Of a DNA stretch of 64,000 bases, positions 9,395 through 61,458 are shown in pieces; the first letter of the stretch is position 1, and every line of letters begins with the position of its first letter. The position numbers were made by a program, and so were the translations under genes. The DNA comes from Bacteroidetes bacterium UBA2364 (GTDB lineage Bacteria > Bacteroidota > Rhodothermia > Rhodothermales > UBA2364): NCBI GenBank assembly GCA_002344075.1, contig DDTM01000001.1, forward strand, positions 2,529-66,528. The letters run 5' to 3'. The notes beneath the pieces were generated by a model. That model was not told where the DNA came from and made no database searches. It worked only from the letters and a program-made list of their open reading frames with translations.

Positions 9395-10471
9395 ATGAGT
9401 GTAGCCCCTGTAAATACGGAATCTATTCTGGCAGATAAAGCCGAATATTATTTGGGATTTAATACCCCGAAAATCAGTAAAGAACAACTTCATTTGCCCG
9501 GCAGCGATTTTGTTGACCGCGTTTTTGGCATTAGTGACCGGACGCCTCAGGTACTCCGCTCCATTCAGGCCATGTTCGGAACAGGCCGCCTTGCCAATAC
9601 GGGCTATCTGTCCATTTTACCGGTAGATCAGGGAATAGAGCATTCTGCGGGTGCTTCTTTTGCCAAGAACCCCATCTACTTTGATCCCGAAAACATCGTA
9701 AAATTGGCCATTGAAGGCGGTTGCAATGCCGTATGCTCTACTTATGGTGGACTCGGCTCGGTAGCCCGAAAGTATGCGCATAAAATTCCGATGATGCTCA
9801 AGATCAACCACAATGAATTATTGACCTATCCCAACAAGTTTGATCAAGTAATGTTTGCGCAGGTCAAGAATGCATGGGATATGGGCTGTGTTTCGATTGG
9901 CGCAACGGTCTATTTTGGATCGGACCAATCCACCCGGCAATTGATGGAAGTCTCCGAGGCGTTCGCCTATGCGCATGAGTTGGGCATGGCTACCGTCTTG
10001 TGGTGTTATACCCGCAACAACGCATTTAAGGTTAATGGCGTAAACTACGAAACGGGCGCCGACCTGACGGGCCAAGCCAACCACCTTGGTGCAACTATCG
10101 AGGCTGATATTGTGAAACAAAAACAACCAGACTGTAATGGCGGTTTTAAAGCCCTCAATTCTGGAAACTCCAGCTATGGCAAATTAGATGAGCGGATGTA
10201 CACCGAACTTGCAAGCGATCATCCAATTGACTTGACGCGCTATCAGGTAGCCAATGGTTATATGGGCCGCATCGGCCTCATCAACTCCGGCGGCGGTTCT
10301 GGCTCCAATGACTTACAAGATGCTGTTATTACCGCTGTTGTGAACAAACGCGCAGGCGGAATGGGCCTTATTTCCGGCAGAAAAGCCTTCCAACGCCCCA
10401 TGAATGAAGGAATCGGTATCTTGAATGCCATCCAAGATGTCTTCTTAGACGAATCCGTAAGCATTGCATAA
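9395..10471 (+). CDS. fbaB: Class I fructose-bisphosphate aldolase (FbaB/DhnA type)
   Basis: [39 protein letters not shown]...[22 protein letters not shown] closely parallels E. coli FbaB. The start is set at MSVAPV (9395); the track ORF starts at 9236 with a non-homologous extension. Confidence 0.9.
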
Positions 10472-10494
10472 GCACGGATCCATTCAACACGTTG

Positions 10495-10526: not shown

Positions 10527-10730
10527 TTTCCCTTTCCGTTGCCAACGCAACAAACTTTATTTTATCGTATCTTGTGTAGTTGATGCACCTAAAGACCCCG
10601 TTTGTGGCGGCGCACCCTTGCTTACGACCTTTATGGAGTCTGGTTTTCCAAGGCTGCATTTTGTCATTTAGCCTCATACCATATTTTCGTCAACACGAAC
10701 CTAAAACTAACAACTAAAGAAGGTGTCAGA

Positions 10731-12050
10731 ATGTCTCGTGTCTCGTTTCACACCCTCGGTTGCAAGCTGAATTATGCCGAAACCAGCACCATTGCCCGCG
10801 ACTTCAAGGCACAAGGCTACGAGACCGTGCCCTTTGAAACAGCCGCAGATGTAACCGTCATCAACACGTGTACCGTCACAGAACAGGCAGAGGCCAAGTG
10901 CCGCAATGCCATTCGTCGGGCACTACGCGCAAATCCAGACACTTTTGTGATTGTTACGGGCTGTTATGCACAACTCAGACCAGAAGAAATTGCCACAATT
11001 CCCGGCGTGGATGTGGTGTTGGGTGCACAGGAAAAATTCCAAATTTTCTCCCTTTTCAAAGATTTCGAGAAGCAAACACAGACACAAGTTACGGTCTCTT
11101 GCATAGATGATGTAGTGGCCTTTGGTCCGTCATACTCTTCCGGCGAACGCACCCGTGCTTTCCTGAAGGTACAAGACGGATGTGACTATATTTGTTCTTT
11201 TTGCACCATCCCACAGGCACGTGGAAAGAGCCGATCCGCGCCAATCGCCGAAACCCTCCGTTCCGCCCGTGAAGTCATAGAAAAAGGATACAAGGAAATT
11301 GTTCTTTCCGGTATCAATATCGGTTTATACGGACAAGAACATGGAACCGACCTTCTGGCTTTATTACGCGAATTAGACCAACTCGAAGGAGTAGAACGTT
11401 TCCGTATCTCCTCCATCGAACCCAATTTACTCACGGACGACATCCTTCAGTTTGTTGCCGGATCTAATACATTTCAGCCACACTTTCATATCCCGTTGCA
11501 AAGCGGTGATAACGAGGTTTTGGGAAAGATGCGACGACGATACCGCCGTGAACTTTATGCCGAACGCGTGCAGAGAATCCATGCCCTCATGCCCGACGCC
11601 TGTATTGGAGTGGATGTCATTGTGGGATTTCCGGCGGAAACCGAGACCCATTTTGAGCAGACCTACCAGTTCCTGAACGAATTACCCGTTTCGTATTTCC
11701 ACGTATTTACCTATTCGGAACGACCCAACACGACTGCGGTGGAGCAGTTGGAGCGCATGGGAACGCCGGTACCAGCAAGAGAACGCGAACGCAGAAGCAA
11801 AATGTTGCGCATTTTATCCGCCAAAAAGCGATTGGCCTTTCATCAGGCAAATACAGGTACTACACGTCCGGTGCTGTGGGAAGACGAAGAAAAGAGTGGA
11901 CTTATGTTTGGCTTCACTGATAATTATGTAAAAGTCCAGACACCATATGATCCGGAAAAGGCAGGATCTATCGAAACAGTAACCTTGGGAGTCTTGGCTG
12001 AAGACGGGACGGTGAAAGTGGAAGACAAGGCTTTTATCTCGATTCTTTGA
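10731..12050 (+). CDS. mtaB: Radical-SAM tRNA methylthiotransferase, MtaB-like (UPF0004 + radical SAM + TRAM)
   Basis: MSRVSFHTLGCKLNYAETS N-terminus, a CDYICSFCTIP CxxxCxxC cluster, and a C-terminal TRAM-like region. The start is set at 10731. Confidence 0.85.
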   Translation: MSRVSFHTLGCKLNYAETSTIARDFKAQGYETVPFETAADVTVINTCTVTEQAEAKCRNAIRRALRANPDTFVIVTGCYAQLRPEEIATIPGVDVVLGAQEKFQIFSLFKDFEKQTQTQVTVSCIDDVVAFGPSYSSGERTRAFLKVQDGCDYICSFCTIPQARGKSRSAPIAETLRSAREVIEKGYKEIVLSGINIGLYGQEHGTDLLALLRELDQLEGVERFRISSIEPNLLTDDILQFVAGSNTFQPHFHIPLQSGDNEVLGKMRRRYRRELYAERVQRIHALMPDACIGVDVIVGFPAETETHFEQTYQFLNELPVSYFHVFTYSERPNTTAVEQLERMGTPVPARERERRSKMLRILSAKKRLAFHQANTGTTRPVLWEDEEKSGLMFGFTDNYVKVQTPYDPEKAGSIETVTLGVLAEDGTVKVEDKAFISIL

Positions 12051-43911: not shown

Positions 43912-46900
43912 TTATTTAATTAAGCCCAAATTACGGGCAGCATCAATAATGGCACCTGCGATGGGTGCAACCTCCCCTCCATGTTTTCCGGACTCCTCGG
44001 CAAGCACTGCCACCACCAGATGACCTCCCTTGCCATCGGGGGCAAAGCAGACAAACCAAGCATGATCGAGATGTCCAGTTTGTTGGGCCGTTCCGGTTTT
44101 TCCAGAAATGGAGGAGCGGTTTCCGGCAATAGATTTCGCCGTTCCCGTGGTTACCACCTTTCGCATCATGTTTTTAAGTAACGCCGCCTGACCAGTTGTC
44201 AAAATAGTTTTCGGCTCTCCTACAAATGTGGTCTCTTCAAGAAAAAATCGGGGCTCCACCGCTTTACCCTCATTGGCAACTGTAGCCGCCATCCGCGCCA
44301 CATTGATGGGTGCGCCCACAATTTCCCCTTGTCCAAATCCAGCCTGTGCCAGATTGCGGAGGTTATTTGCATACAGTCGTTCTAATTTTTGCTGTTTTTC
44401 AAAGGCGCTGTTTCGAACCACAAAGCCAAACGCATCCAAAACATACAGCATCCCTTCCGGCCCCACACGATCTGCTGCTAAACTTGCAAAATAAACATTA
44501 CCGGAATATACAACTGCTTTCTCCATATCCACCACCCCACTTGGCTCACCAAGCCTGAAAAATTGCGCCCAGCGGTTCCGCTGATCTACCAACACCGTCC
44601 AGTTTGCGGCCCCATCGCCCCCTCTTCGAAACGCAGCCATGGCCGTTGCCACTTTGAGGGTCGAGCCTGGGGCCTTAGACGCATAGAGTCCATGATCGAA
44701 TAGTGACACCTTAGACTGGGCCAAACTGGGAGAAATAAAAACCTCGTGAGGTAATGGATACGATACAGAGGCTAGCAGATCGCCCTTCTTGGCATCCAGC
44801 ACCACCGCCGAAACAACCTGATTCTTCTTCTGCAACCCCATTTGAGCCGTTTTCAGCCGCAAGACTTCCGCCACTTTTTGCTGAAGCCGTACATCAATGG
44901 TCAACTTTAGGTCACGCTTTGTATTCAGTATTTTATCTGCATTTTTCGGATCTGCCCCTCGTAAGAAGGGTAATAATGGCGAATAATCAAACTTAACCAC
45001 TGTATAAGTTGTATCGGTGCCATCTGCGAGCCGATGGGTGATCCTCCGCGCAACTGGTTTGTTATCATAACCTCTTAAAGTAGAAAGATACCTGTTTTCG
45101 GCATATAAGCCATTGGGTGCATTCCACTTTACCCGATTATTCAGGTCACCCAGTAAATAAAAGGTAAGTGCTTCAAAGGGGTAGTGACGCTTGGGCGCAA
45201 GCAACTCATTTTTACTAAGCGGAAATCCAAGTTCCCGATATGTTTTCTTAAACGAAGTGAAAGCACTCGTATCCGAGGCCGCAAGTGGAATTCCATTCCG
45301 ATCATATATATTCCCTAAGGGCAAGGCGTCGCGAATACGCAACATACGTGGATTATACGTATAACTTTTAAGGCCATCGGACTGTATAACGAGCGCTTGC
45401 TTAAGCGAAACATCATCGGCTTGAATCAATTGTAAATACCCAACACGTCCCAATACCAGCAGTGCCAATACCAAGAACGCATATCGTAAGGCTTGAATCG
45501 GCCTCCCGAAATCCTTTTCCTGAATTTGTCGAAATTGTTCCGATGGGTTCTGATTGGAAAGGCTCATCAACAATCCCGCAAAAACCAAGTGCATAACCAC
45601 CGCCACCTTTCCATAGCTAAGGAAGGGCGACACAACGCCTGTTAGAGGTAACAATCCAAAAACCCCTCCCGCAATCAACACCAGTTGAATCATCGTCGAG
45701 GCCACAATACCCAATCCCAAAAAAAGACTAAAACGGGCATCGGTTCTTAACGCAATCATCAAACCACGATGAAAATAGATGGCATAGAGTAAAAATACCG
45801 CCGCCAATCCAAAGTACCCCAACTCCTCCCCAATCGCAGAAAGGATCATATCTGTATGGGCAGCGGGCGTATCTGCAGGAGATCCATCGCCTAAACCCTG
45901 TCCAAACCAACCACCCGCAGCCAGTGACCAGAATGAATATGCTAAATGGTCTCCCCCGTCCGCTTCGTTATCCCAAGGAGAAAGCCACATCTCAATTCTC
46001 GACCCCACCGTCGGGTTCAACTGATACATCACCCAAAATCCTGCAATAAGCAACACCAAGCCAAGTCCTAATGCGGCCCAATGATGCCGGGTAAAGGCAT
46101 AGAGCACCAAGAAAGTGGTACAAATAACCAGTGCCGGGCCGAGGTCTTTTTGTAAATAGAAAAACACAAGCGCAAACGCTACACCAAACAAAATGGGCAA
46201 CATCGCCTTTAGATTGGGCAGGCGGATTCCGGCCCACTCCACCCATTTAGGTAAATGGGCATCCAATTGGCGGATGAACTGCCATTTTCTGGCCAAATAC
46301 CCCGCAAAAAAGATCAACAGGAACAATTTAATAATCTCGACGGGCTGGATCTCTGGCCCAAAAAACAGGAACATCCGCAAGTTTACCCTAGCAGTGCTCC
46401 CTTCTGGTCCAAAACCGATGGTGAGTAACAAGAGGGAAATCAGCGCAGCCCCTCCCAGCCACCAAAAACTCCGGTTTCCGGTTTCGCTGTAATCATATCC
46501 CCAATGCTGAATGTCTGTTAGAGACAAGACCGTAAATAAAACCAACCCCACACCAATGGCCAGAACCGTATCCCAACCCCTCAACAAATCCCGTAGGGGG
46601 TCTGGAATGGCAAACATCATCAACAGCCCCAACCCTGTTAGCATCATCAAAACAGGTAGTATATATGGATCCCCATTAAACTGCCGAAAACGCCACGCCA
46701 CATGTACAAGCCAGAACAAGGCCATAAACAGGCCTCCGAACAGAAAAAGGGCATGGGTAAAATCGTTGGGACCTCGAACAACAACTTGGGGCTTAAGTCT
46801 TGAAAAAACAGCAGATTCAATTAATCTTATAGTATGGGGTTGGGCTGAAAAATGTGCCTCCTCATGGTCCCGAAGGGTTAGATGACGAACACGGCGAAAC

Positions 46901-47577
46901 TCTACACCCGGCTTCATGGCAAGCACATAGTAATCACGATTGGCACCTAAACCCTCGAAAACGAATTGGCCTGAGACATCAGTCCGGACGGTGTCTCGAC
47001 GAACATCAGAATCCAACGTAACCAGTGTTCCCGAAAGTGGATTGCCCGTTGCGTCGCGAACAGAGCCAGAAATACGAAAAGGGCCTTCTCGGTGTCGGGC
47101 AACAGACGGAAATGGTTTGGGGGCCTTCCGCTCTTGTACAACCAATTTGGGAGAGAGGCCTATTTGTTTCCAAGAATTTTCCAACCGTGCTTTCAGGCTT
47201 TCACCGCCTTTCTGTTCAATCTCGTGCGCAGGTACTTTTAGCTTATTCAGTGTTCCTACATTCGGGATTTCACCTGCTTGCACCCGATTAAATATGGCCT
47301 CTGCAACAAAACGCTGGTCCTTTCCATCCGGATATAGGCTTCGCATCACATCCCGCAATTCAGCCGGATTGTTCATCGCATTTAGGTTTATCACCTTTTT
47401 CTGGACCATTAGCTGCTCGGTCTCGCCAAGTGCTTCTGTTTTGGTAAAAAACAAGGCTGCAAAACCAAAAACCATGACCAAGGTTGCAAAAGCAAGCCAA
47501 AGAGCTTCTTGACTCCGTAGTTCATGACGAAAGGGCATTTTTGCGTTCGTAACCGTGCGCTCTGTAAAGGTTGACAT
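43912..47577 (-). CDS. Fusion protein: N-terminal two-TM extension with a periplasmic CarboxypepD_reg-like domain, a SEDS (FtsW/RodA) glycosyltransferase, and a class-B penicillin-binding-protein transpeptidase
   Basis: SEDS motifs QPVEIIKLFLLIFFAGYL, LQKDLGPALV, AAHTDMILSAIGEELG and LPLTGVVSPFLSYG. Transpeptidase motifs STLK (SxxK), SGN (SxN) and KTGT (KTG). All lie in one uninterrupted 1221-codon ORF. Confidence 0.9.
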   Translation of the reverse strand: MSTFTERTVTNAKMPFRHELRSQEALWLAFATLVMVFGFAALFFTKTEALGETEQLMVQKKVINLNAMNNPAELRDVMRSLYPDGKDQRFVAEAIFNRVQAGEIPNVGTLNKLKVPAHEIEQKGGESLKARLENSWKQIGLSPKLVVQERKAPKPFPSVARHREGPFRISGSVRDATGNPLSGTLVTLDSDVRRDTVRTDVSGQFVFEGLGANRDYYVLAMKPGVEFRRVRHLTLRDHEEAHFSAQPHTIRLIESAVFSRLKPQVVVRGPNDFTHALFLFGGLFMALFWLVHVAWRFRQFNGDPYILPVLMMLTGLGLLMMFAIPDPLRDLLRGWDTVLAIGVGLVLFTVLSLTDIQHWGYDYSETGNRSFWWLGGAALISLLLLTIGFGPEGSTARVNLRMFLFFGPEIQPVEIIKLFLLIFFAGYLARKWQFIRQLDAHLPKWVEWAGIRLPNLKAMLPILFGVAFALVFFYLQKDLGPALVICTTFLVLYAFTRHHWAALGLGLVLLIAGFWVMYQLNPTVGSRIEMWLSPWDNEADGGDHLAYSFWSLAAGGWFGQGLGDGSPADTPAAHTDMILSAIGEELGYFGLAAVFLLYAIYFHRGLMIALRTDARFSLFLGLGIVASTMIQLVLIAGGVFGLLPLTGVVSPFLSYGKVAVVMHLVFAGLLMSLSNQNPSEQFRQIQEKDFGRPIQALRYAFLVLALLVLGRVGYLQLIQADDVSLKQALVIQSDGLKSYTYNPRMLRIRDALPLGNIYDRNGIPLAASDTSAFTSFKKTYRELGFPLSKNELLAPKRHYPFEALTFYLLGDLNNRVKWNAPNGLYAENRYLSTLRGYDNKPVARRITHRLADGTDTTYTVVKFDYSPLLPFLRGADPKNADKILNTKRDLKLTIDVRLQQKVAEVLRLKTAQMGLQKKNQVVSAVVLDAKKGDLLASVSYPLPHEVFISPSLAQSKVSLFDHGLYASKAPGSTLKVATAMAAFRRGGDGAANWTVLVDQRNRWAQFFRLGEPSGVVDMEKAVVYSGNVYFASLAADRVGPEGMLYVLDAFGFVVRNSAFEKQQKLERLYANNLRNLAQAGFGQGEIVGAPINVARMAATVANEGKAVEPRFFLEETTFVGEPKTILTTGQAALLKNMMRKVVTTGTAKSIAGNRSSISGKTGTAQQTGHLDHAWFVCFAPDGKGGHLVVAVLAEESGKHGGEVAPIAGAIIDAARNLGLIK

Positions 47578-47683: not shown

Positions 47684-48553
47684 CTACATCCGGAAGATGA
47701 GTTGTACCTGACCTGCAAGAGATAATTCATCGCCAGATTGGAGGGGGTGCCAATGGCCCGATTCCACACGGTGATGGTTAAGATACGTTCCAAAACGGCT
47801 CGTATCTTTAAAGTAAAACGTATTGGTTTCAGGTGTAAAATGAACCCGGATATGCTCGCGTGAAACTTCTCCATTCGTTTGAAGTGCCACGTCCACCCGA
47901 CGGCTCCCAGGATCTAAACGACCAATGATAAAATCTTGTTTTACAATTTGGTAAGTTTGTCTTCCTGCAAGATCGGTGTACTCTAAAAAGGCAGTAGGAA
48001 TGACAGGTGAAGCAGGCATAGATCGTACAGCAGGCGTTGTATTACCCGAAGAACCAACTGGTGCCATTACTGGTGTTACAAGATTACGAGTGGGTTGGTG
48101 CCCCATTTCTCCCAAACGTTCGTCTGCTTTGTCGCGATGGAGGCTCGCTTTTACCCCAATATAGCCCAATGGGGTATCCGCATCGTACACTGGATGAATA
48201 TCTAAGTACCATGTTGCCACCGTGCGCTGGTACACCTCCTTGATCGTCCCAATGGTCGCGGGTTCAGGCTTTCCCCAGAAACGACTAATCCCCCGCACCA
48301 TCCGCACAAGAGGTGTTTTGTTTTTCCGAAGGTTCATGGCCCGCAATTCTTTGTCTAATCGCGCCCGAATACGCTCATTCAAATACGAAAAAGTTGGTGC
48401 GATTTCTTTATATGCTGTTGGATGTAGTAATACTTGAAAGTGAATCGGAACCAAATAGGCTTCCTTATCAAATGGTTCCGCACCATTCTTCATGGCTTCG
48501 GCAACCGTATCCACAATTTCCTGAGCACTGGGGCGACGGAATGTATCTTGCAT
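47684..48553 (-). CDS. FhaA-like protein (DUF3662-like N-terminus plus C-terminal FHA domain)
   Basis: YLVPIHFQVLLHP... in the N-terminal domain. FHA signature FIIGRLD...VSREHIRVHF...SRFGTYLN...LQSGDELSLAG. Confidence 0.8.
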   Translation of the reverse strand: MQDTFRRPSAQEIVDTVAEAMKNGAEPFDKEAYLVPIHFQVLLHPTAYKEIAPTFSYLNERIRARLDKELRAMNLRKNKTPLVRMVRGISRFWGKPEPATIGTIKEVYQRTVATWYLDIHPVYDADTPLGYIGVKASLHRDKADERLGEMGHQPTRNLVTPVMAPVGSSGNTTPAVRSMPASPVIPTAFLEYTDLAGRQTYQIVKQDFIIGRLDPGSRRVDVALQTNGEVSREHIRVHFTPETNTFYFKDTSRFGTYLNHHRVESGHWHPLQSGDELSLAGQVQLIFRM

Positions 48554-50559: not shown

Positions 50560-51201
50560 TCACGTTTCCATTAGTTTAAACTTCCATGCCCATGCTACAG
50601 CTTCGGACCTATCTGAAACGCCAATTTTTTCATATATATTAGACAAGTGTTTACGAATGGTATGAACAGAGATACAAAGTGCATCCGCCATCGATTCCAT
50701 AGACAAGCCTTTCGCAGCGGCAATCAGAACATCGCGCTCACGACCCGTTAATAAATTTTCTGGCGTTGTATAACTGCTTCGAATTGGGCTTGCGAGATGC
50801 TCCGGACGAAACCATCCCTTACTGCCTGCCGCCACACCTCGTACTGCTTCAACAATGGTATCAAGGGATTCCCGTTTGCTTAGATAACCCGTTACCCCAA
50901 AAGCGAGCACCCGCTTTACATAATGCGGGCTTATGTAGGCGCTTAAGATCAGAATGCTGGTTTGGTATCGTAGCTGAGACAACTTTTCGAGCACTTCCAA
51001 GCCGTTGGCTTCCGGCATATCTAAATCCAGCAATAAAACATCTGGTTCATGCTCAAGCACTAGCTGGATGGTTTCTATACCATCTTTTGCCTCTGCTACC
51101 ACCTCGATGTCTTTTTCCTCGGCCATTCGGTTACGAATTCCATGCCGCATCAAAGGATGATCATCTGCTATCAAGAGGCGAACAGGCATGGCAGGGGGCA
51201 T
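50560..51201 (-). CDS. NarL/FixJ-family response regulator (REC + LuxR/GerE HTH); no cognate kinase adjacent
   Basis: LLIADDHPLM, LLLDLDMP, and the HTH LTGRERDVLIAAAKGLSMESMADALCISVHTIRKHLSNIYEKIGV. Confidence 0.9.
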   Translation of the reverse strand: MPPAMPVRLLIADDHPLMRHGIRNRMAEEKDIEVVAEAKDGIETIQLVLEHEPDVLLLDLDMPEANGLEVLEKLSQLRYQTSILILSAYISPHYVKRVLAFGVTGYLSKRESLDTIVEAVRGVAAGSKGWFRPEHLASPIRSSYTTPENLLTGRERDVLIAAAKGLSMESMADALCISVHTIRKHLSNIYEKIGVSDRSEAVAWAWKFKLMET

Positions 51202-53603: not shown

Positions 53604-54629
53604 TTACCGATTGTTGGTGCGGGCTGTTGGCTTCATACTGTTCTGGTTTTGAGCATTAGAAGGCTTGCTTTTGGAGTTAGTGGTTGTGTTTCCGGAGGAT
53701 GTACGAGTACTTTTTGAGGTTTGTGGCTTTTTTCGTTCATTCGTCTGTGTTTTGGTAGAGGAAGTGCCTCTTGGCCTCGCCCTATTGGTATTTCGCGGGG
53801 TAGCTTTCGTATTAATTTTGAGATCATTTGTCAATTGTGTCATCCGCTCTGCCCAGAGGCTGAGGTCGAAGCGCTGGGGGGCATCGTGGGCTTCACTCAA
53901 ACCTGCATCCACAGACGCACGAAAAGCAGGGACCAGCCAATAGCCCTTACGCACACTTGCAGCAATATAGACCAGCGCCAAGCGATCATATTGCGCCAAG
54001 GTAAACCCTTCTTCTGGTGCAAGGGCATCCAGACCTGTTTCATCGCGCATCCGAGGCTGTATCAAAGAGACACTCAAGAAAAGCCCCACACGATCTTCCT
54101 TTTCCTTCTCATATTGAGTCGTGGCTAATGGGGTATCAAAAGTTGCTTTTGTGGCCGATGCCCCTATACGGTTGATGATCACATGTGCGAGTACCGGATA
54201 GAATCCAAAATCATTATAGGACCACCCGCTTTCATTCATATCCGCAGGAAAAGAGCTGTCTTTTTCCAACGTAGGGGTACCCGTATCATGGATAACAAAG
54301 TAGCGTGCCGGGATTTTTCGGTCATTTTGTGAAATTTTTGCAAAGACAGATCCGCCCAGGTCTGCTTCATCAATTTGATGCTTGGCGAGATACGCCCGTA
54401 ATTCACGCGCAGTAAGCCCAACCCGTTTTCCGATAATGTTTTCCAGTGGGTCAGGCAAGGTAATGCGAGTAGGTCCGAGCAAGCCATATTTACCCACAGG
54501 GCGCAAAAGGCATCGGGCTTGTTCCGTAGGTGTTCCCGACTTACATGGAACGTTTGGAGATGGCTGCTGTGCAAAGGCCCATAACGGCAAGAATAGGGCC
54601 AGCAGCACCGTATGGTGGTAGGTTTTCAT
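53604..54629 (-). CDS. Secreted Amidase_2 (AmpD/PGRP)-like protein with a long basic T/N/K/R-rich tail
   Basis: Signal peptide; YFVIHDTGTP, AHVIINRIG and ...FTLAQYDRLALVYIA...PQRFD resemble the N-acetylmuramoyl-L-alanine amidase fold pattern. The last ~80 aa are low-complexity. Confidence 0.4.
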   Translation of the reverse strand: MKTYHHTVLLALFLPLWAFAQQPSPNVPCKSGTPTEQARCLLRPVGKYGLLGPTRITLPDPLENIIGKRVGLTARELRAYLAKHQIDEADLGGSVFAKISQNDRKIPARYFVIHDTGTPTLEKDSSFPADMNESGWSYNDFGFYPVLAHVIINRIGASATKATFDTPLATTQYEKEKEDRVGLFLSVSLIQPRMRDETGLDALAPEEGFTLAQYDRLALVYIAASVRKGYWLVPAFRASVDAGLSEAHDAPQRFDLSLWAERMTQLTNDLKINTKATPRNTNRARPRGTSSTKTQTNERKKPQTSKSTRTSSGNTTTNSKSKPSNAQNQNSMKPTARTNNR

Positions 54630-57168: not shown

Positions 57169-58068
57169 ATGAAGACCTTTTTCCGTCAAGTGAAAACCAT
57201 GTCTCTCTTCCTGCTCATCGGTTTGTTGGGCGGATGCGACACCTACCAACAAGACTCCTATAAAAAACAATATGTGGTACAAGGGTACCTCATCGCACTT
57301 GAGCCACTTAGCCCTATCTCGGTCTCGACTACTGTACCGCTTAACGAAATATATAGCTTAGAAGCGACAGCGGTAAAAAACGCAAAAGTAGAGGTACAAC
57401 TATTAAATGCACAAGGCCAACCGGAAAAAACGTTTGATTATGTGGCCGATCCGGACTCGGTGAGTATGTTCAAGCCTCTAGATACCACAGCCTTGGTAAT
57501 GCCCAGCCGCACCTATGCACTACGGATCACCTTTCCCGATAAACCAGATGTGATTACTGCAAAAACCGTGATTCCCGACACCATGCGCGTAATTCGGACC
57601 AATGGGGATACGTTCAGATATCAGCAGCAGCCTCAGTTTGAACAGTTGATTAGCCCTAGTTTAAACCCAAGTCGTCAGTCTTATTTTATCTTCTCGGTAG
57701 AAGGCCTGACCCCTTCTACGACCAATTTGGTCCCTTTCTGGGATCCGGAGAATGGTTTTGGTGGAGACCGCAAGCCCCCCAAGGTGTATGCTTCGCCCAT
57801 TCTGAATGAAGCCAACTACCGCACGTCCGAAGGAAATCTATTAGTACAATTGCCTTGGTTGACGGTGGTGTATTTTGGTAAAAACCGGGTCACCACTACC
57901 GTATTAGATGATGCGACCTACAACTTCTTCCGCACCCAATCGGTTCAATTAGGTGGTTCCACCCTCTCGCCCGGCGAAATTCCGAATGCCGTCACCAATA
58001 TTGTGGGCGGAACAGGTGTCTTTGGCAGTTTGGCACGAGCCACTTCGCTGATGACGGTCACACGATAA
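57169..58068 (+). CDS. DUF4249-family lipoprotein, the usual partner of this receptor class
   Basis: Lipobox LLGGCD, a C-terminal NIVGGTGVFGSLA motif, and a position immediately after the receptor gene. Confidence 0.7.
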   Translation: MKTFFRQVKTMSLFLLIGLLGGCDTYQQDSYKKQYVVQGYLIALEPLSPISVSTTVPLNEIYSLEATAVKNAKVEVQLLNAQGQPEKTFDYVADPDSVSMFKPLDTTALVMPSRTYALRITFPDKPDVITAKTVIPDTMRVIRTNGDTFRYQQQPQFEQLISPSLNPSRQSYFIFSVEGLTPSTTNLVPFWDPENGFGGDRKPPKVYASPILNEANYRTSEGNLLVQLPWLTVVYFGKNRVTTTVLDDATYNFFRTQSVQLGGSTLSPGEIPNAVTNIVGGTGVFGSLARATSLMTVTR

Positions 58069-58786
58069 CAGGTTTTTGTGCGAATCGAATAGAAGTACCG
58101 GGAATGGTGTAGATACGCGCCGTTCCCTTGTTTTTTGCCTGAAACTTGATACCCCACCCATGAAGCAAGTCGTCCACTTCGCGCCAATCGAAACCAAAAT
58201 GAGTACTCCATGCCGTTCTCTGGTCTCGAAAAACCGCCACTGACTTTCGAGACAACAACCGGCGCAAGTATATACCCCAAGAAACAGACGGCAATTCGTC
58301 TAACGAATCGCGATAAATCAATGTTTTTAAAAGGAATTTTACCAAACCGATCATCCCAATTTCAATAGGGAGAGACAGAAGAGCCACACCGCTTGGAGCC
58401 ACATGAACGAGCACATTGCGAAGCGCATTTTCCAGATTGCCCGTGTGTTCCAAAGTTTCGAGACAACAGACCAACGAAGCCTGTCTTATTGGGGGTGATG
58501 GCGCAGTGTTTAGGTCAAAAAAAGAAATGTGAGCATCGGGCAAATAGGCCTGTGCATCCCGTAAATGGGCCTGTATGACATCAAAACCATATACACGCTT
58601 CACCCCGCTCCATTCTTGCAGCAGTGCTGTCAGATAGCCATTCGAGCAACCAAAATCCGCCAAAGTCTCCAATATATAATCCTTCCGCAGGCTTAATACC
58701 TCGTTCCGGAGCGTCCTTAATCGGCTACGATGACCCAAATTTCGAAAGCGAAAGGTACGGTACGTCAGCGAATGATCAACAGCCAT
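58058..58786 (-). CDS. Class I SAM-dependent methyltransferase
   Basis: Motif I LADFGCSNGYLT, motif post-I YGFDV, and CLETLEH. It follows the histidine kinase by 18 nt. Confidence 0.75.
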   Translation of the reverse strand: MAVDHSLTYRTFRFRNLGHRSRLRTLRNEVLSLRKDYILETLADFGCSNGYLTALLQEWSGVKRVYGFDVIQAHLRDAQAYLPDAHISFFDLNTAPSPPIRQASLVCCLETLEHTGNLENALRNVLVHVAPSGVALLSLPIEIGMIGLVKFLLKTLIYRDSLDELPSVSWGIYLRRLLSRKSVAVFRDQRTAWSTHFGFDWREVDDLLHGWGIKFQAKNKGTARIYTIPGTSIRFAQKPVIV

Positions 58787-58804
58787 TTTGTTTCGGCAGC
58801 AGGT

Positions 58805-59956
58805 TCAAAACAAAGCAGGACGCGGTAACTCGAACCAGAATACCGAGCCGCCACCCTCACGCGGCAGATACCCGATCTTCCCACCCCAATGTTCTACGGT
58901 TATCTTGCAGAAATATAGCCCTAGGCCCAACTTTCCACGACGCTCTTTGCCTTGCTGGAATTTTTGAAAGACAACCTCCACAAGATCCTGACGAATACCC
59001 GGCCCTTCATCTTCTATTTGAACACGAATATTTTTTCCCACATCCGTCATCCGTACCAGAACAGTTCCGCCTTCACTACTATGCCACAAGGCATTTCCGA
59101 TCAGGTTAAACATTACTCGTTCCAACCGCAACTTATCTGCATTCACTTTCCAATTGCCCCCCTGATCTGTTTTTGGATCCAACAGCAAATTTACTTTGTT
59201 CAGCAAGGCTGTGGACAAAACCGACTTAATCACATCCATCGTGGTGATCAACATGTCTGGAGCTTCGTTGGGCGTTGGTGCAGCAAAATCTCCAGAATCC
59301 AACTCAGCAGAAAAGGAGTCTAGGATCTCTAGCACCAACTTATCAAGACGTGCCGCTTGCCTCTGACATATTTCAATAAACTCGCGGCCATTTGCGCTTA
59401 GCGTTTCTTTCCCCAATAAATCCAGATAGCCTTTTAGGCCGGCGAGTGGTCCGGACATATCATGAACGATGGTATGTAATAAGACGTCCTTCTGCTCCAT
59501 TTCATCACGTACCTTACGATATTCAAGCGTGTGTTCGCGTGCTTTCTGGAGCAAAGTTTGGCGTTCGGCAAACGTACTCCCCATAGACCGCAACAGCAGG
59601 ATGCGTCGGTTCTGTACAAACAAAGCCGTTGCTTCTATAAAATAGTCATCGTCCTGACCATCCGTTTCTTCCCAAACACCTGATTGCAGTTGCTGGTGGG
59701 TATGGGTTTGCCACAGCCGCTCCGCGTCAATCAGGAAGTTGTCCAGAACCGGAGAAAGTTGTCCGAGTTGGTGATTCTGCAAATATTGCTCGAAATTGGG
59801 GTACAACCGAGGAAACCATTCAGGGACCTCGCCTACAACCACAAAATTTCCCAACTTTCTTCGTTCAAAAACCATTGTATCCATCGCCTTCAGCAAGGCT
59901 GGTAGCAAGGCTTGGTCTATAGGGGGTGCTTTATGAGCAGTTATTTCTTGTTTCAT
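58805..59956 (-). CDS. Soluble sensor histidine kinase (N-terminal sensor-like domain + HisKA + HATPase_c); no response regulator adjacent
   Basis: H-box LLHTIVHDMSGPLAGLKGYLDLL, N-box FNLIGNALWHS, G1 EDEGPGI, and G2 GLGLYFCK. No TM helix. The track start at 60010 is possible. Confidence 0.85.
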   Translation of the reverse strand: MKQEITAHKAPPIDQALLPALLKAMDTMVFERRKLGNFVVVGEVPEWFPRLYPNFEQYLQNHQLGQLSPVLDNFLIDAERLWQTHTHQQLQSGVWEETDGQDDDYFIEATALFVQNRRILLLRSMGSTFAERQTLLQKAREHTLEYRKVRDEMEQKDVLLHTIVHDMSGPLAGLKGYLDLLGKETLSANGREFIEICQRQAARLDKLVLEILDSFSAELDSGDFAAPTPNEAPDMLITTMDVIKSVLSTALLNKVNLLLDPKTDQGGNWKVNADKLRLERVMFNLIGNALWHSSEGGTVLVRMTDVGKNIRVQIEDEGPGIRQDLVEVVFQKFQQGKERRGKLGLGLYFCKITVEHWGGKIGYLPREGGGSVFWFELPRPALF

Positions 59957-60034
59957 GGCGGATCGTGATTTGAAACTGGTTGCGTGAAGGGGCACGTAAC
60001 ATGATAGCACTGAAAAATAAGTCCAGAAGAGGAG

Positions 60035-60958
60035 TTAATGTACTAAGAATTCGCTTAAAATTTGACCTGGTTTGGCTTTTGAAGTTAATTCACGTGCTTT
60101 GTCTATTGCTTCTCCCAAAATTGTAAGTCGGTTTTGGCCATAAATGGGTACATTAGCAATCCATACAGCCCCCCACGAGATTCCGCCACGCAACACTATA
60201 ACGGGTCGCAGACCACTTTTTGCATCAAAATAGGTAGGGATAGAAAGCATCAAAGCAAGCAGTTTCTCGGTAAGTTCACCTACCACTTCCTGCAAATCTT
60301 TATCTGTAGGAATGATCCCTAATATGGCCTGAAAACCGGAAGCAGCAACAAAAATTGGCCACGCCAAGGCTTCACCGAGAAGTTTCTCGATCTGTTGAAG
60401 CAAGACCCCAATCTCTGCAAAAGCCACTTGTATGGTTTCTGGATCTTTTACGGCAACATCAAGATCAAACACCACTTCCAGCACCACAACTTGCGCTTGG
60501 GAACCTTCCCTATAGCGATAAATCAACTCTTGTTGCAAGGTACTGGCCATCCGTCCATGACCGTTTATTCGGAGTTTTCCAAGATTTTGCTTGATCAACT
60601 GGAGTTCATTTGCCTGCTGAAACAATTGTTGTTTCTCGATGTGTTGCAACGTAACATCTACAAAGACCACCCAATCCCCGTCCAGTTCATGAAAAAAGTG
60701 TGCATCTGCAATGCGACCATTCTTCATGTGTACATCCGGAACAAGAAAAGACTCTCCATTCAGCGGCAACAGTCCCACCAAAAGGGGTACCATCTCAAGA
60801 ATGGTGTTTGGTAATGGTTCCGGAATACCCAAGTTGAACCAATCTCCACCAACCAAAACGATATTTCCTACAGGATCGGCCTGCACAAACGCTGGCCGGA
60901 ACCGTTCGATGGAAATAGACTCCAGATAGGTTTTAACGGAGACAGGAAGCAGGTTCAT
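60035..60958 (-). CDS. Signalling protein: N-terminal alpha/beta sensor-like (possibly Roadblock/PAS-like) domain, a coiled coil, and a degenerate class-III nucleotide-cyclase-homology domain
   Basis: The C-terminal half follows the cyclase-homology pattern (VVVLEVVFDLDV..., ...LRGGISWGAVWIANVPIYGQNRLTILGEAIDKARELTSKAKPGQIL). It lacks the canonical GD metal ligand and the Asn of VNxAxR. Its ATG overlaps the GTPase stop (ATGA). Confidence 0.5.
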   Translation of the reverse strand: MNLLPVSVKTYLESISIERFRPAFVQADPVGNIVLVGGDWFNLGIPEPLPNTILEMVPLLVGLLPLNGESFLVPDVHMKNGRIADAHFFHELDGDWVVFVDVTLQHIEKQQLFQQANELQLIKQNLGKLRINGHGRMASTLQQELIYRYREGSQAQVVVLEVVFDLDVAVKDPETIQVAFAEIGVLLQQIEKLLGEALAWPIFVAASGFQAILGIIPTDKDLQEVVGELTEKLLALMLSIPTYFDAKSGLRPVIVLRGGISWGAVWIANVPIYGQNRLTILGEAIDKARELTSKAKPGQILSEFLVH

Positions 60959-61458
60959 GGGGTCTCTTTGAGCATCCGTTCAGTCAGTAGTTCAAATATC
61001 TCGGCCACTCCTTCGCCCGTGAGCGCACTGGTTTTTTTGATCAACCACCCTTTCGATAAAAAGCCTTCTATCTGCTCTTCGGAAAGTTGCCACTCGCCCG
61101 CGAGGTCGGCTTTGTTAAGTACCAAAATAAACGGAACCGGCCCAAACGTCGCTTCGGTATTGCGCTGCAAAGCAAGCGCACGATCTAATGTAATCTTTCG
61201 CGTACCATCGGCAACCAAAATATATCCAGACATCCCCCTTAAGTACGAGAGGCGCAACTTTTGAAACTCGTCTTCTCCATGCAAATCCCAAAGCATCAGA
61301 TTGACCTCGGTTTCACCCTGTTTTACGAGACGCTTATCTACTTTCACCCCAACCGTTGTCAGGTATTCCTCCGAGAAGATACTGTTCACAAACCTTTTAA
61401 CAAGACTGGTTTTACCGACGGCAAATGAACCGAGCATGCAAACCTTTTTTTGGATCAT
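60955..61458 (-). CDS. Ras/Rab-like small GTPase (prokaryotic Ras superfamily)
   Basis: G1 GSFAVGKTS, switch I YLTTVGV, G3 WDLHGEDEF, G4 LNKAD, G5 TSALTGEGV. About 167 aa from MIQKKVCMLG. The track's upstream extension to 61614 has no GTPase homology. Confidence 0.8.
   Translation of the reverse strand: MIQKKVCMLGSFAVGKTSLVKRFVNSIFSEEYLTTVGVKVDKRLVKQGETEVNLMLWDLHGEDEFQKLRLSYLRGMSGYILVADGTRKITLDRALALQRNTEATFGPVPFILVLNKADLAGEWQLSEEQIEGFLSKGWLIKKTSALTGEGVAEIFELLTERMLKETP

Follow-up and report, generated by a model that had tools for sequence, protein, structure and literature searches.

Which signalling system is encoded where the genes of a small Ras-like GTPase, a 307-amino acid (aa) protein without Pfam match and a histidine kinase follow one another? 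This question is raised by positions 58058-61458 of a 64,000-nucleotide stretch of Bacteroidetes bacterium UBA2364 (Rhodothermales; contig DDTM01000001.1, positions 2,529 to 66,528), which is called the window in the following. Four packed open reading frames (ORFs) on the minus strand had been described for this locus in an earlier note made from the sequence alone, and all four were confirmed in the sequence. The note regarded them as an operon of an undescribed system, with a cyclase-homology scaffold as partner of the GTPase. In our opinion the locus is rather likely a reduced member of a signalling system that has already been published, Group 1 Rup (Rup1).

Group 1 Rup was defined computationally by Wuichet and Søgaard-Andersen (2015; PMC4316618). 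The gene order DUFY>DUFX:OmpA>Rup is listed for it in Table S2 of that study. The GTPases lack the Gln of the G3 box, which was proposed to be supplied in trans by an unknown GTPase-activating protein (GAP), and the fourth conserved gene encodes a kinase or a diguanylate cyclase (DGC)/EAL output with an invariant Gln in its N-terminal part (PMC4316618). By scanning the genomes of GTDB species with an alignment of the GTPase, at least 563 loci were confirmed. Eighty loci were fetched with 10-kb flanks and examined together with five close relatives (L001-L005) and the window, giving 86 loci. A protein of about 600 aa with C-terminal OmpA domain (DUFX:OmpA) is encoded at position -1 in 73 of the 80 orthologous loci, and a helical protein of about 204 aa (DUFY) at position -2 in 64 of them. 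Since this gene order, the missing G3 Gln and the invariant Gln of the output protein all match the published description, the family can be equated with Group 1 Rup, and the idea of an undescribed system had to be abandoned. Against the membership of the window locus speaks that profiles of DUFX and DUFY, built from the 73 and 64 proteins, found neither in the six-frame translation of the window. In L001-L005 the gene lpd is located directly upstream of the GTPase gene in place of DUFX and DUFY. The Rhodothermales version, as present in the window, is thus predicted to be a soluble three-gene core without these two components.

The GTPase (60955..61458, minus strand, 167 aa) matches the Pfam families Ras (2e-27), Roc and Arf as well as TIGR00231. 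All five boxes of the Ras superfamily were aligned: G1 with G10-T17, G2 with T35, G3 with D58-G61, G4 with N115-D118 and G5 with SAL at about 144-146. Both motifs named in the earlier note, YLTTVGV and WDLHGEDEF, were found, and their codon positions were checked. The latter aligns with WDTAGQEEF of Rab23, so that the catalytic Gln of G3 is replaced by E62 (WDLHG-E62). In alignment A5, 19 of 19 family members have Glu or Asp there, and WDxxGE/D-DEF is invariant. In the PDB, the 60 best matches were without exception Rabs; they include Rab23 (7e-23) and a Rab of Thorarchaeota. The homologues number about 8000, and many carry the NCBI label "Rab family GTPase"; those closest to the GTPase outside its lineage share about 60-67% identity with it and belong to Cyanobacteria, Acidobacteriota, Desulfobacterota and others. 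Judged by its sequence, the GTPase is Rab-like rather than MglA-like, as had been supposed. In a recent phylogeny Rup1 clusters with eukaryotic Rab, Ras, Rho and Ran and with Asgard RasL (bioRxiv 10.1101/2024.02.28.582541).

Two domains accompany the GTPase. They are called NT, the N-terminal part of the 307-aa protein (residues 1-132; 60563..60958, minus strand), and HKN, the N-terminal 155-160 residues, approximately, of the kinase (59477..59956, minus strand; Jackhmmer, alignment A6). NT is encoded directly after the GTPase in 62 of the 86 loci, usually with abutting genes, and HKN was detected by Jackhmmer downstream of the GTPase in most of them. The order GTPase>NT>HKN is found in 42 loci, GTPase>HKN in 23 and GTPase>NT in 13; the remainder have NT and HKN fused (five), HKN before NT (two) or neither domain (one). 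Most cyanobacteria encode NT as a separate protein of 126-139 aa. The complete order DUFY>DUFX:OmpA>Rup>NT>HKN-HK is present in Nostoc and Anabaena. The exact arrangement of the window, with a cyclase homology domain (CHD) behind NT and a histidine kinase behind HKN, occurs in five further loci (L006, L020, L023, L031 and L057).

The adjacency might merely reflect shared ancestry within one lineage, with GTPase, 307-aa protein and kinase acting independently. L001-L005 indeed share the flanking lpd, TonB receptor and DUF4249 genes, too. However, the order GTPase/NT/HKN is present in Cyanobacteria, Acidobacteriota, Desulfobacterota, Verrucomicrobiota and Pseudomonadota with differing flanks, NT and HKN are joined in one polypeptide in five loci, and stop and start codons abut or overlap. 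We therefore regard independent action as hardly credible. The clustering of GTPase, NT and HKN is not due to chance, because this order is found again in 80 independent loci distributed over several phyla.

Some further features were noticed in these loci. The NT+HKN fusions directly follow the GTPase in L008 (7217-9541), L016 (10507-11256), L053 (5432-6943), L067 (9682-10782) and L082 (10502-12010), and several of the fusion proteins run on into a histidine kinase. A metagenome-assembled genome of Blastocatellia (L083) has two Rup-type GTPase genes in tandem (10001-10492 and 10627-11133) before the genes of NT and the HKN kinase. Downstream of the kinase and on the same strand, 13 cyanobacterial loci encode a protein of about 1043 aa, in which only a short HU-like segment (Bac_DNA_binding) is recognized; besides L017 (13747-16878) these are 12 other Nostocales loci with the gene at position +3 to +5.

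The 307-aa protein (60035-60958, minus strand) gave only noise when compared directly with Pfam, NCBIfam and PDB sequences. A word-indexed search found the protein itself and one relative with 68% identity, and an exhaustive HMMER search found 364 relatives. Among 108 homologues, NT (residues 1 to about 130) is present in proteins of many lengths. It is followed by Guanylate_cyc (PF00211) in 37 and by HisKA/HATPase in 31 of them. Hybrid histidine kinases, sigma-54 activators, SpoIIE, GGDEF/EAL, PAS and HD-GYP domains are also fused to NT and/or HKN. In one relative of 409 aa (P0126) two NT copies are arranged in tandem; the profile matches residues 134-263, and the N-terminal copy is visible in the sequence.

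There is no Pfam model for NT, and a profile search against PDB sequences gave no match. Gln114 (codon 60617-60619) is the sole invariant column in the alignment of 108 NT sequences and was invariant again in two further alignments (A2, A4 and A7 altogether). Modelling of the full 307-aa protein with AlphaFold2 (AF2) from a two-sequence alignment reached a pLDDT of 39.9 and was unusable. For NT, with an alignment of 63 sequences, the pLDDT was 89.9. The model consists of a helix (6-20), strands 23-27 and 33-38, a short helix, strands 71-77, 83-91 and 94-101 and a long C-terminal helix (103-131), on which Gln114 is located. With Foldseek, the top 50 PDB matches were all folds of the PAS/LOV/PYP type (E from 1.4e-3, TM-score 0.44-0.52), including the PAS domain of FlrB, VC2136, YF1, YtvA, PYP and a phytochrome PAS domain. 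No Pfam PAS model matches, hence NT belongs to PAS at the fold level only. The junction D101-V-T103 (DVT) resembles the DIT motif of PAS domains. According to the model, NT is PAS-like but divergent, and the invariant Gln114 sits on its signalling helix. Thus, not the cyclase-homology scaffold assumed in the earlier note, but the PAS-like NT, which stands alone in most cyanobacteria, is the conserved partner encoded next to the GTPase.

A Roadblock/LC7 identity was considered for NT and ruled out, as Foldseek matched PAS folds only. This result bears on the view that the locus is an analogue of MglA/MglB or of the conservon, with the 307-aa protein as Roadblock-type GAP or guanine nucleotide exchange factor. 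A small GTPase is combined here with a kinase and no response regulator, and the same analogy was drawn for Group 1 Rup by Wuichet and Søgaard-Andersen (PMC4316618). Yet none of the four window proteins matched Robl_LC7 or DUF742 in Pfam, in agreement with the expectation that a Roadblock partner is missing. Furthermore, the affinities of the GTPase are with Rab rather than MglA, and the kinase is soluble unlike the membrane-bound CvnA. Such an analogue is accordingly quite improbable.

The C-terminal half of the 307-aa protein (residues 150-307, approximately; 60038..60511, minus strand) was assigned to the class III cyclases by its relatives. NT-cyclase proteins of about 340 aa align with the 307-aa protein over the full length, and their C-terminal halves are bona fide class III cyclase domains (HMMER). 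An example of the intact type is P0141 with LFADIRGFT, KIIGDAVMAIFG and VNLASRLE; in the NT-cyclase protein of L006, PF00211 is matched at 2.6e-19. The 307-aa protein itself scores below the Pfam threshold of PF00211. A profile made from five degenerate sequences alone matched the PDB adenylate cyclases AC10, 2w01 and CyaB at about 3e-4, and a weak PycC match with PADLOC is of minor support. The cyclase fold proposed in the earlier note was upheld by these HMMER and profile searches.

When mapped against P0141, the first metal-binding Asp is replaced by V163, the second by S207, the substrate-binding Lys by F203, the transition-state Asn by D286 and the Arg by E290. The loss of the second Asp and of the Asn had been recognized before, and the degeneration goes further than was stated then. 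In addition, the protein ends 17 residues after the Arg column versus a median of 50, which means that about 33 C-terminal residues are missing. Within 65 unique NT-cyclase relatives, the full set D/D/N/R is retained in 18 and neither Asp in 26. For five NT-CHD proteins (L006, L020, L023, L031 and L057) the gene is flanked by those of a Rup GTPase and an HKN kinase, and every one of the five has lost one or more catalytic residues. The C-terminal half is consequently predicted to be a catalytically dead, truncated class III cyclase homologue. One could object that the protein is still an active or ligand-binding cyclase with a pocket kept for sensing, and that the GTPase regulates signalling linked to cyclic nucleotides (cNMP) instead of the kinase. 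Because 18 of the 65 relatives keep the full D/D/N/R set, the ancestral protein of this type was probably a GTPase-regulated cyclase. For the window protein, five replaced key residues, the missing C-terminus and a score below the PF00211 threshold make this very unlikely.

The kinase gene extends from 58805 to 60010 with a GTG start or from 58805 to 59956 with an ATG start (minus strand). As the orthologues begin at MKQE, the ATG start and a kinase of 383 aa are favoured. HisKA (2.9e-9) and HATPase_c (2.5e-23) form the core (58805..59491) and span residues 174-398 of the GTG form, so that roughly 170 residues at the N-terminus have no Pfam assignment. H165 (codon 59462-59464) is the phospho-acceptor, and the H, N, G1 (DEGPG) and G2 boxes are intact. 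The protein has no transmembrane segment (maximum of 1.24 in a 19-residue Kyte-Doolittle window). Pfam, hydropathy and motifs thus agree with the soluble HisKA/HATPase kinase that had been described.

For HKN, neither a Pfam match nor a hit in the profile search against PDB sequences was obtained. Its invariant residues are G93, W95, A111, Q137 and R140 (alignment A6). The motif Q137xxR140 (codons 59546-59548 and 59537-59539) is present in 70 of 70 HKN domains covering this column and lies about 25 residues upstream of His165. HKN is also fused to hybrid HK-REC-Hpt kinases, to a PAS/sigma-54 activator/HTH_8 protein and to an HD_5 domain of the HD-GYP type. Proteins with HKN that are no plain kinases are encoded in L040 (5951-7018), L045 (10520-12307), L084 (10495-12495) and L056 (10509-12923).

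The sole REC protein detected in the window is a NarL/LuxR-type regulator (REC and GerE; 50560-51201, minus strand) without adjoining kinase gene. It was considered as cognate partner of the kinase, but this is unsupported, since it is about 7 kb away and genes on both strands lie between. Regulators of the NarL type usually pair with HisKA_3 kinases.

How might these proteins work together? By binding the GTPase directly, NT and HKN would sense its nucleotide state, and this binding would switch the autophosphorylation of the kinase, which would be the output. Because Q137 and R140 are found about 25 residues before His165, HKN may relay the binding to the adjacent dimerization and histidine phosphotransfer (DHp) helix. 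Gln114 of NT and Gln137/Arg140 of HKN are candidates for residues that complete the active site of the GTPase in trans. The pseudo-cyclase would produce no cNMP and might serve as dimeric adaptor or GAP-like regulator, the whole protein filling the slot that the stand-alone NT protein has in most cyanobacteria. In other lineages, signals may reach the GTPase from DUFX:OmpA and DUFY, the envelope-anchored proteins that are usually encoded ahead of it. A more specific version of this mechanism can be put forward tentatively, as a possibility and not as the expected outcome: HKN with Gln and an Arg finger (Q137xxR140) and NT with Q114 could be built-in GTPase-activating modules, GTP hydrolysis could be mechanically coupled to kinase switching, and the dead cyclase could act as competing decoy or timer. 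If true, bacteria would have a counterpart of the eukaryotic Rab/RabGAP logic, wired directly into two-component signalling, with a minimal, soluble form in the Rhodothermales that consists of three proteins and no envelope components.

Several points weigh against these proposals. The invariant Gln residues are placed on long helices and could have a role in a coiled coil or signalling helix. NT has no invariant Arg. The comparison of NT with HKN gave an E-value of 0.076 for a single sequence against a profile, 0.0012 for A4 against A6 (19% probability) and 0.039 for A6 against A7. No REC domain is encoded in the operon and consequently no adjacent response regulator, as had been noted before. 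A literature search for Rup1 or its locus tags yielded the 2015 paper and phylogenetic mentions without experimental follow-up, and this literature contains no measured interaction, GAP activity or kinase regulation for the family.

The fourth gene encodes a class I methyltransferase of 242 aa dependent on S-adenosylmethionine (58058-58786, minus strand). This classification from the earlier note held: Methyltransf_23 (1e-9), Methyltransf_12, Methyltransf_25 and Methyltransf_11 of Pfam match, which indicates generic class I similarity only. One might imagine a four-component system, a new pathway specific for the Rhodothermales, with the methyltransferase modifying the GTPase, kinase or adaptor in a CheR-like manner. 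The gene lies on the strand of the kinase gene, 18 nt behind it, and is kept in the window, in L001 and in L002. These three are the only ones among the 86 loci, however. The methyltransferase is lacking in each of the 80 distant orthologous loci and in L005, a Rhodothermales-like locus whose GTPase is 70% identical. In L003 and L004 it carries an internal deletion of 371 nt which causes a frameshift (at about 10737 in L003, compared to 10737-11107 in L002). Both are strain-level relatives from independent samples, and their flanking DNA is 99.2-99.97% identical to that of L002. A four-component system is for these reasons unlikely. Because of its absence from L005 and the 80 loci and its deletion in L003 and L004, the methyltransferase is probably a lineage-specific neighbour and no component of the conserved module, and it appears dispensable. 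The adjacency of the four genes is real, but the conserved unit comprises three genes: the order GTPase/NT/HKN recurs in loci from several phyla, where the methyltransferase is missing.

The layout of the cluster corresponds to the earlier description. The GTPase gene and the gene of the 307-aa protein overlap by 4 nt in the stop/start sequence ATGA at 60955-60958, as read in the sequence, which suggests translational coupling. According to the coordinates, the gap to the kinase gene is 24 nt for the GTG start or 78 nt for the ATG start. The upstream flank is formed by the divergent gene of dihydrolipoyl dehydrogenase (lpd) and the downstream flank by a convergent TonB-dependent receptor/DUF4249 pair, so that the minus-strand cluster consists of exactly four genes. 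Scans for promoters and terminators gave counts within the expectation from shuffled sequences and were uninformative on the limits of the operon. With PADLOC no defence system was assigned to the locus; apart from the PycC match, only a weak methyltransferase match was reported.

Elsewhere in the window, an ORF of 1221 aa (43912-47577, minus strand) joins CarboxypepD_reg-like, SEDS (FtsW/RodA) and penicillin-binding transpeptidase domains in one polypeptide. Beside it an FhaA-like FHA protein is encoded (47684-48553, minus strand), an arrangement that recalls the actinobacterial FhaA/RodA/PbpA cluster. An ORF of 341 aa (53604-54629, minus strand) without Pfam match combines an N-terminus resembling a signal peptide with a long tail of low complexity, in which Ser, Thr, Lys and Asn abound. 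L002 and L003 have a gene of the same length in the syntenic place.

The family is already on record and the locus is a reduced variant, therefore the surprise for a specialist is moderate. The description of Rup1 from 2015 is sharpened in that two separate partner domains are recognized, NT and HKN, each with polar residues that are strictly invariant and neither covered by a Pfam model. Added to it are the PAS-like nature of NT, the use of NT and HKN as modular inputs to many outputs and their natural fusions. The version of the window is soluble, consists of three genes and has no OmpA-anchored parts, and is therefore well suited as a minimal system to be reconstituted in biochemical work. 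With it one can ask whether a histidine kinase is gated by a Rab-like switch in bacteria and whether this kinase supplies the catalytic residues that the GTPase lacks.

In comparison with Group 1 Rup, the locus shares a single-domain Ras-like GTPase with G boxes of the eukaryotic type and no G3 Gln, and an adjacent output, the histidine kinase, with an invariant Gln (Q137) in the N-terminal region. Orthologues with the order DUFY>DUFX:OmpA>Rup share about 60% identity with its GTPase. In contrast to the described members, DUFY and DUFX:OmpA are missing in the window, a lineage-specific methyltransferase gene follows that of the kinase, two partner domains are distinguished instead of the single "N-term" of the paper, and the NT protein bears a dead, truncated cyclase domain.

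Like the conservon (CvnA-D) and MglA-MglB, the locus couples a small GTPase genetically to a histidine kinase without response regulator, and catalysis by the GTPase probably needs a partner. Unlike them, it has no Roadblock/LC7 protein (CvnB/MglB) and no DUF742 protein (CvnC), its GTPase is Rab-like, its kinase is soluble, and its partner domain is PAS-like. With PAS-linked class III cyclases the 307-aa protein has the PAS-like sensor, the signalling helix and the cyclase homology domain in common, and intact relatives exist. It differs from them in the replacement of both metal-binding Asp, Lys, Asn and Arg, in the absence of about 33 C-terminal residues and in its sub-threshold Pfam score.

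Catalytic residues are given to a GTPase in trans by the dual fingers of TBC RabGAPs and by the Asn thumb of Rap1GAP. For NT and HKN, no relation to TBC or RapGAP domains is seen in sequence or fold. What the locus shares with these systems is a GTPase without usable cis-Gln, next to partners with an invariant Gln (NT) or an invariant Gln and Arg (HKN).

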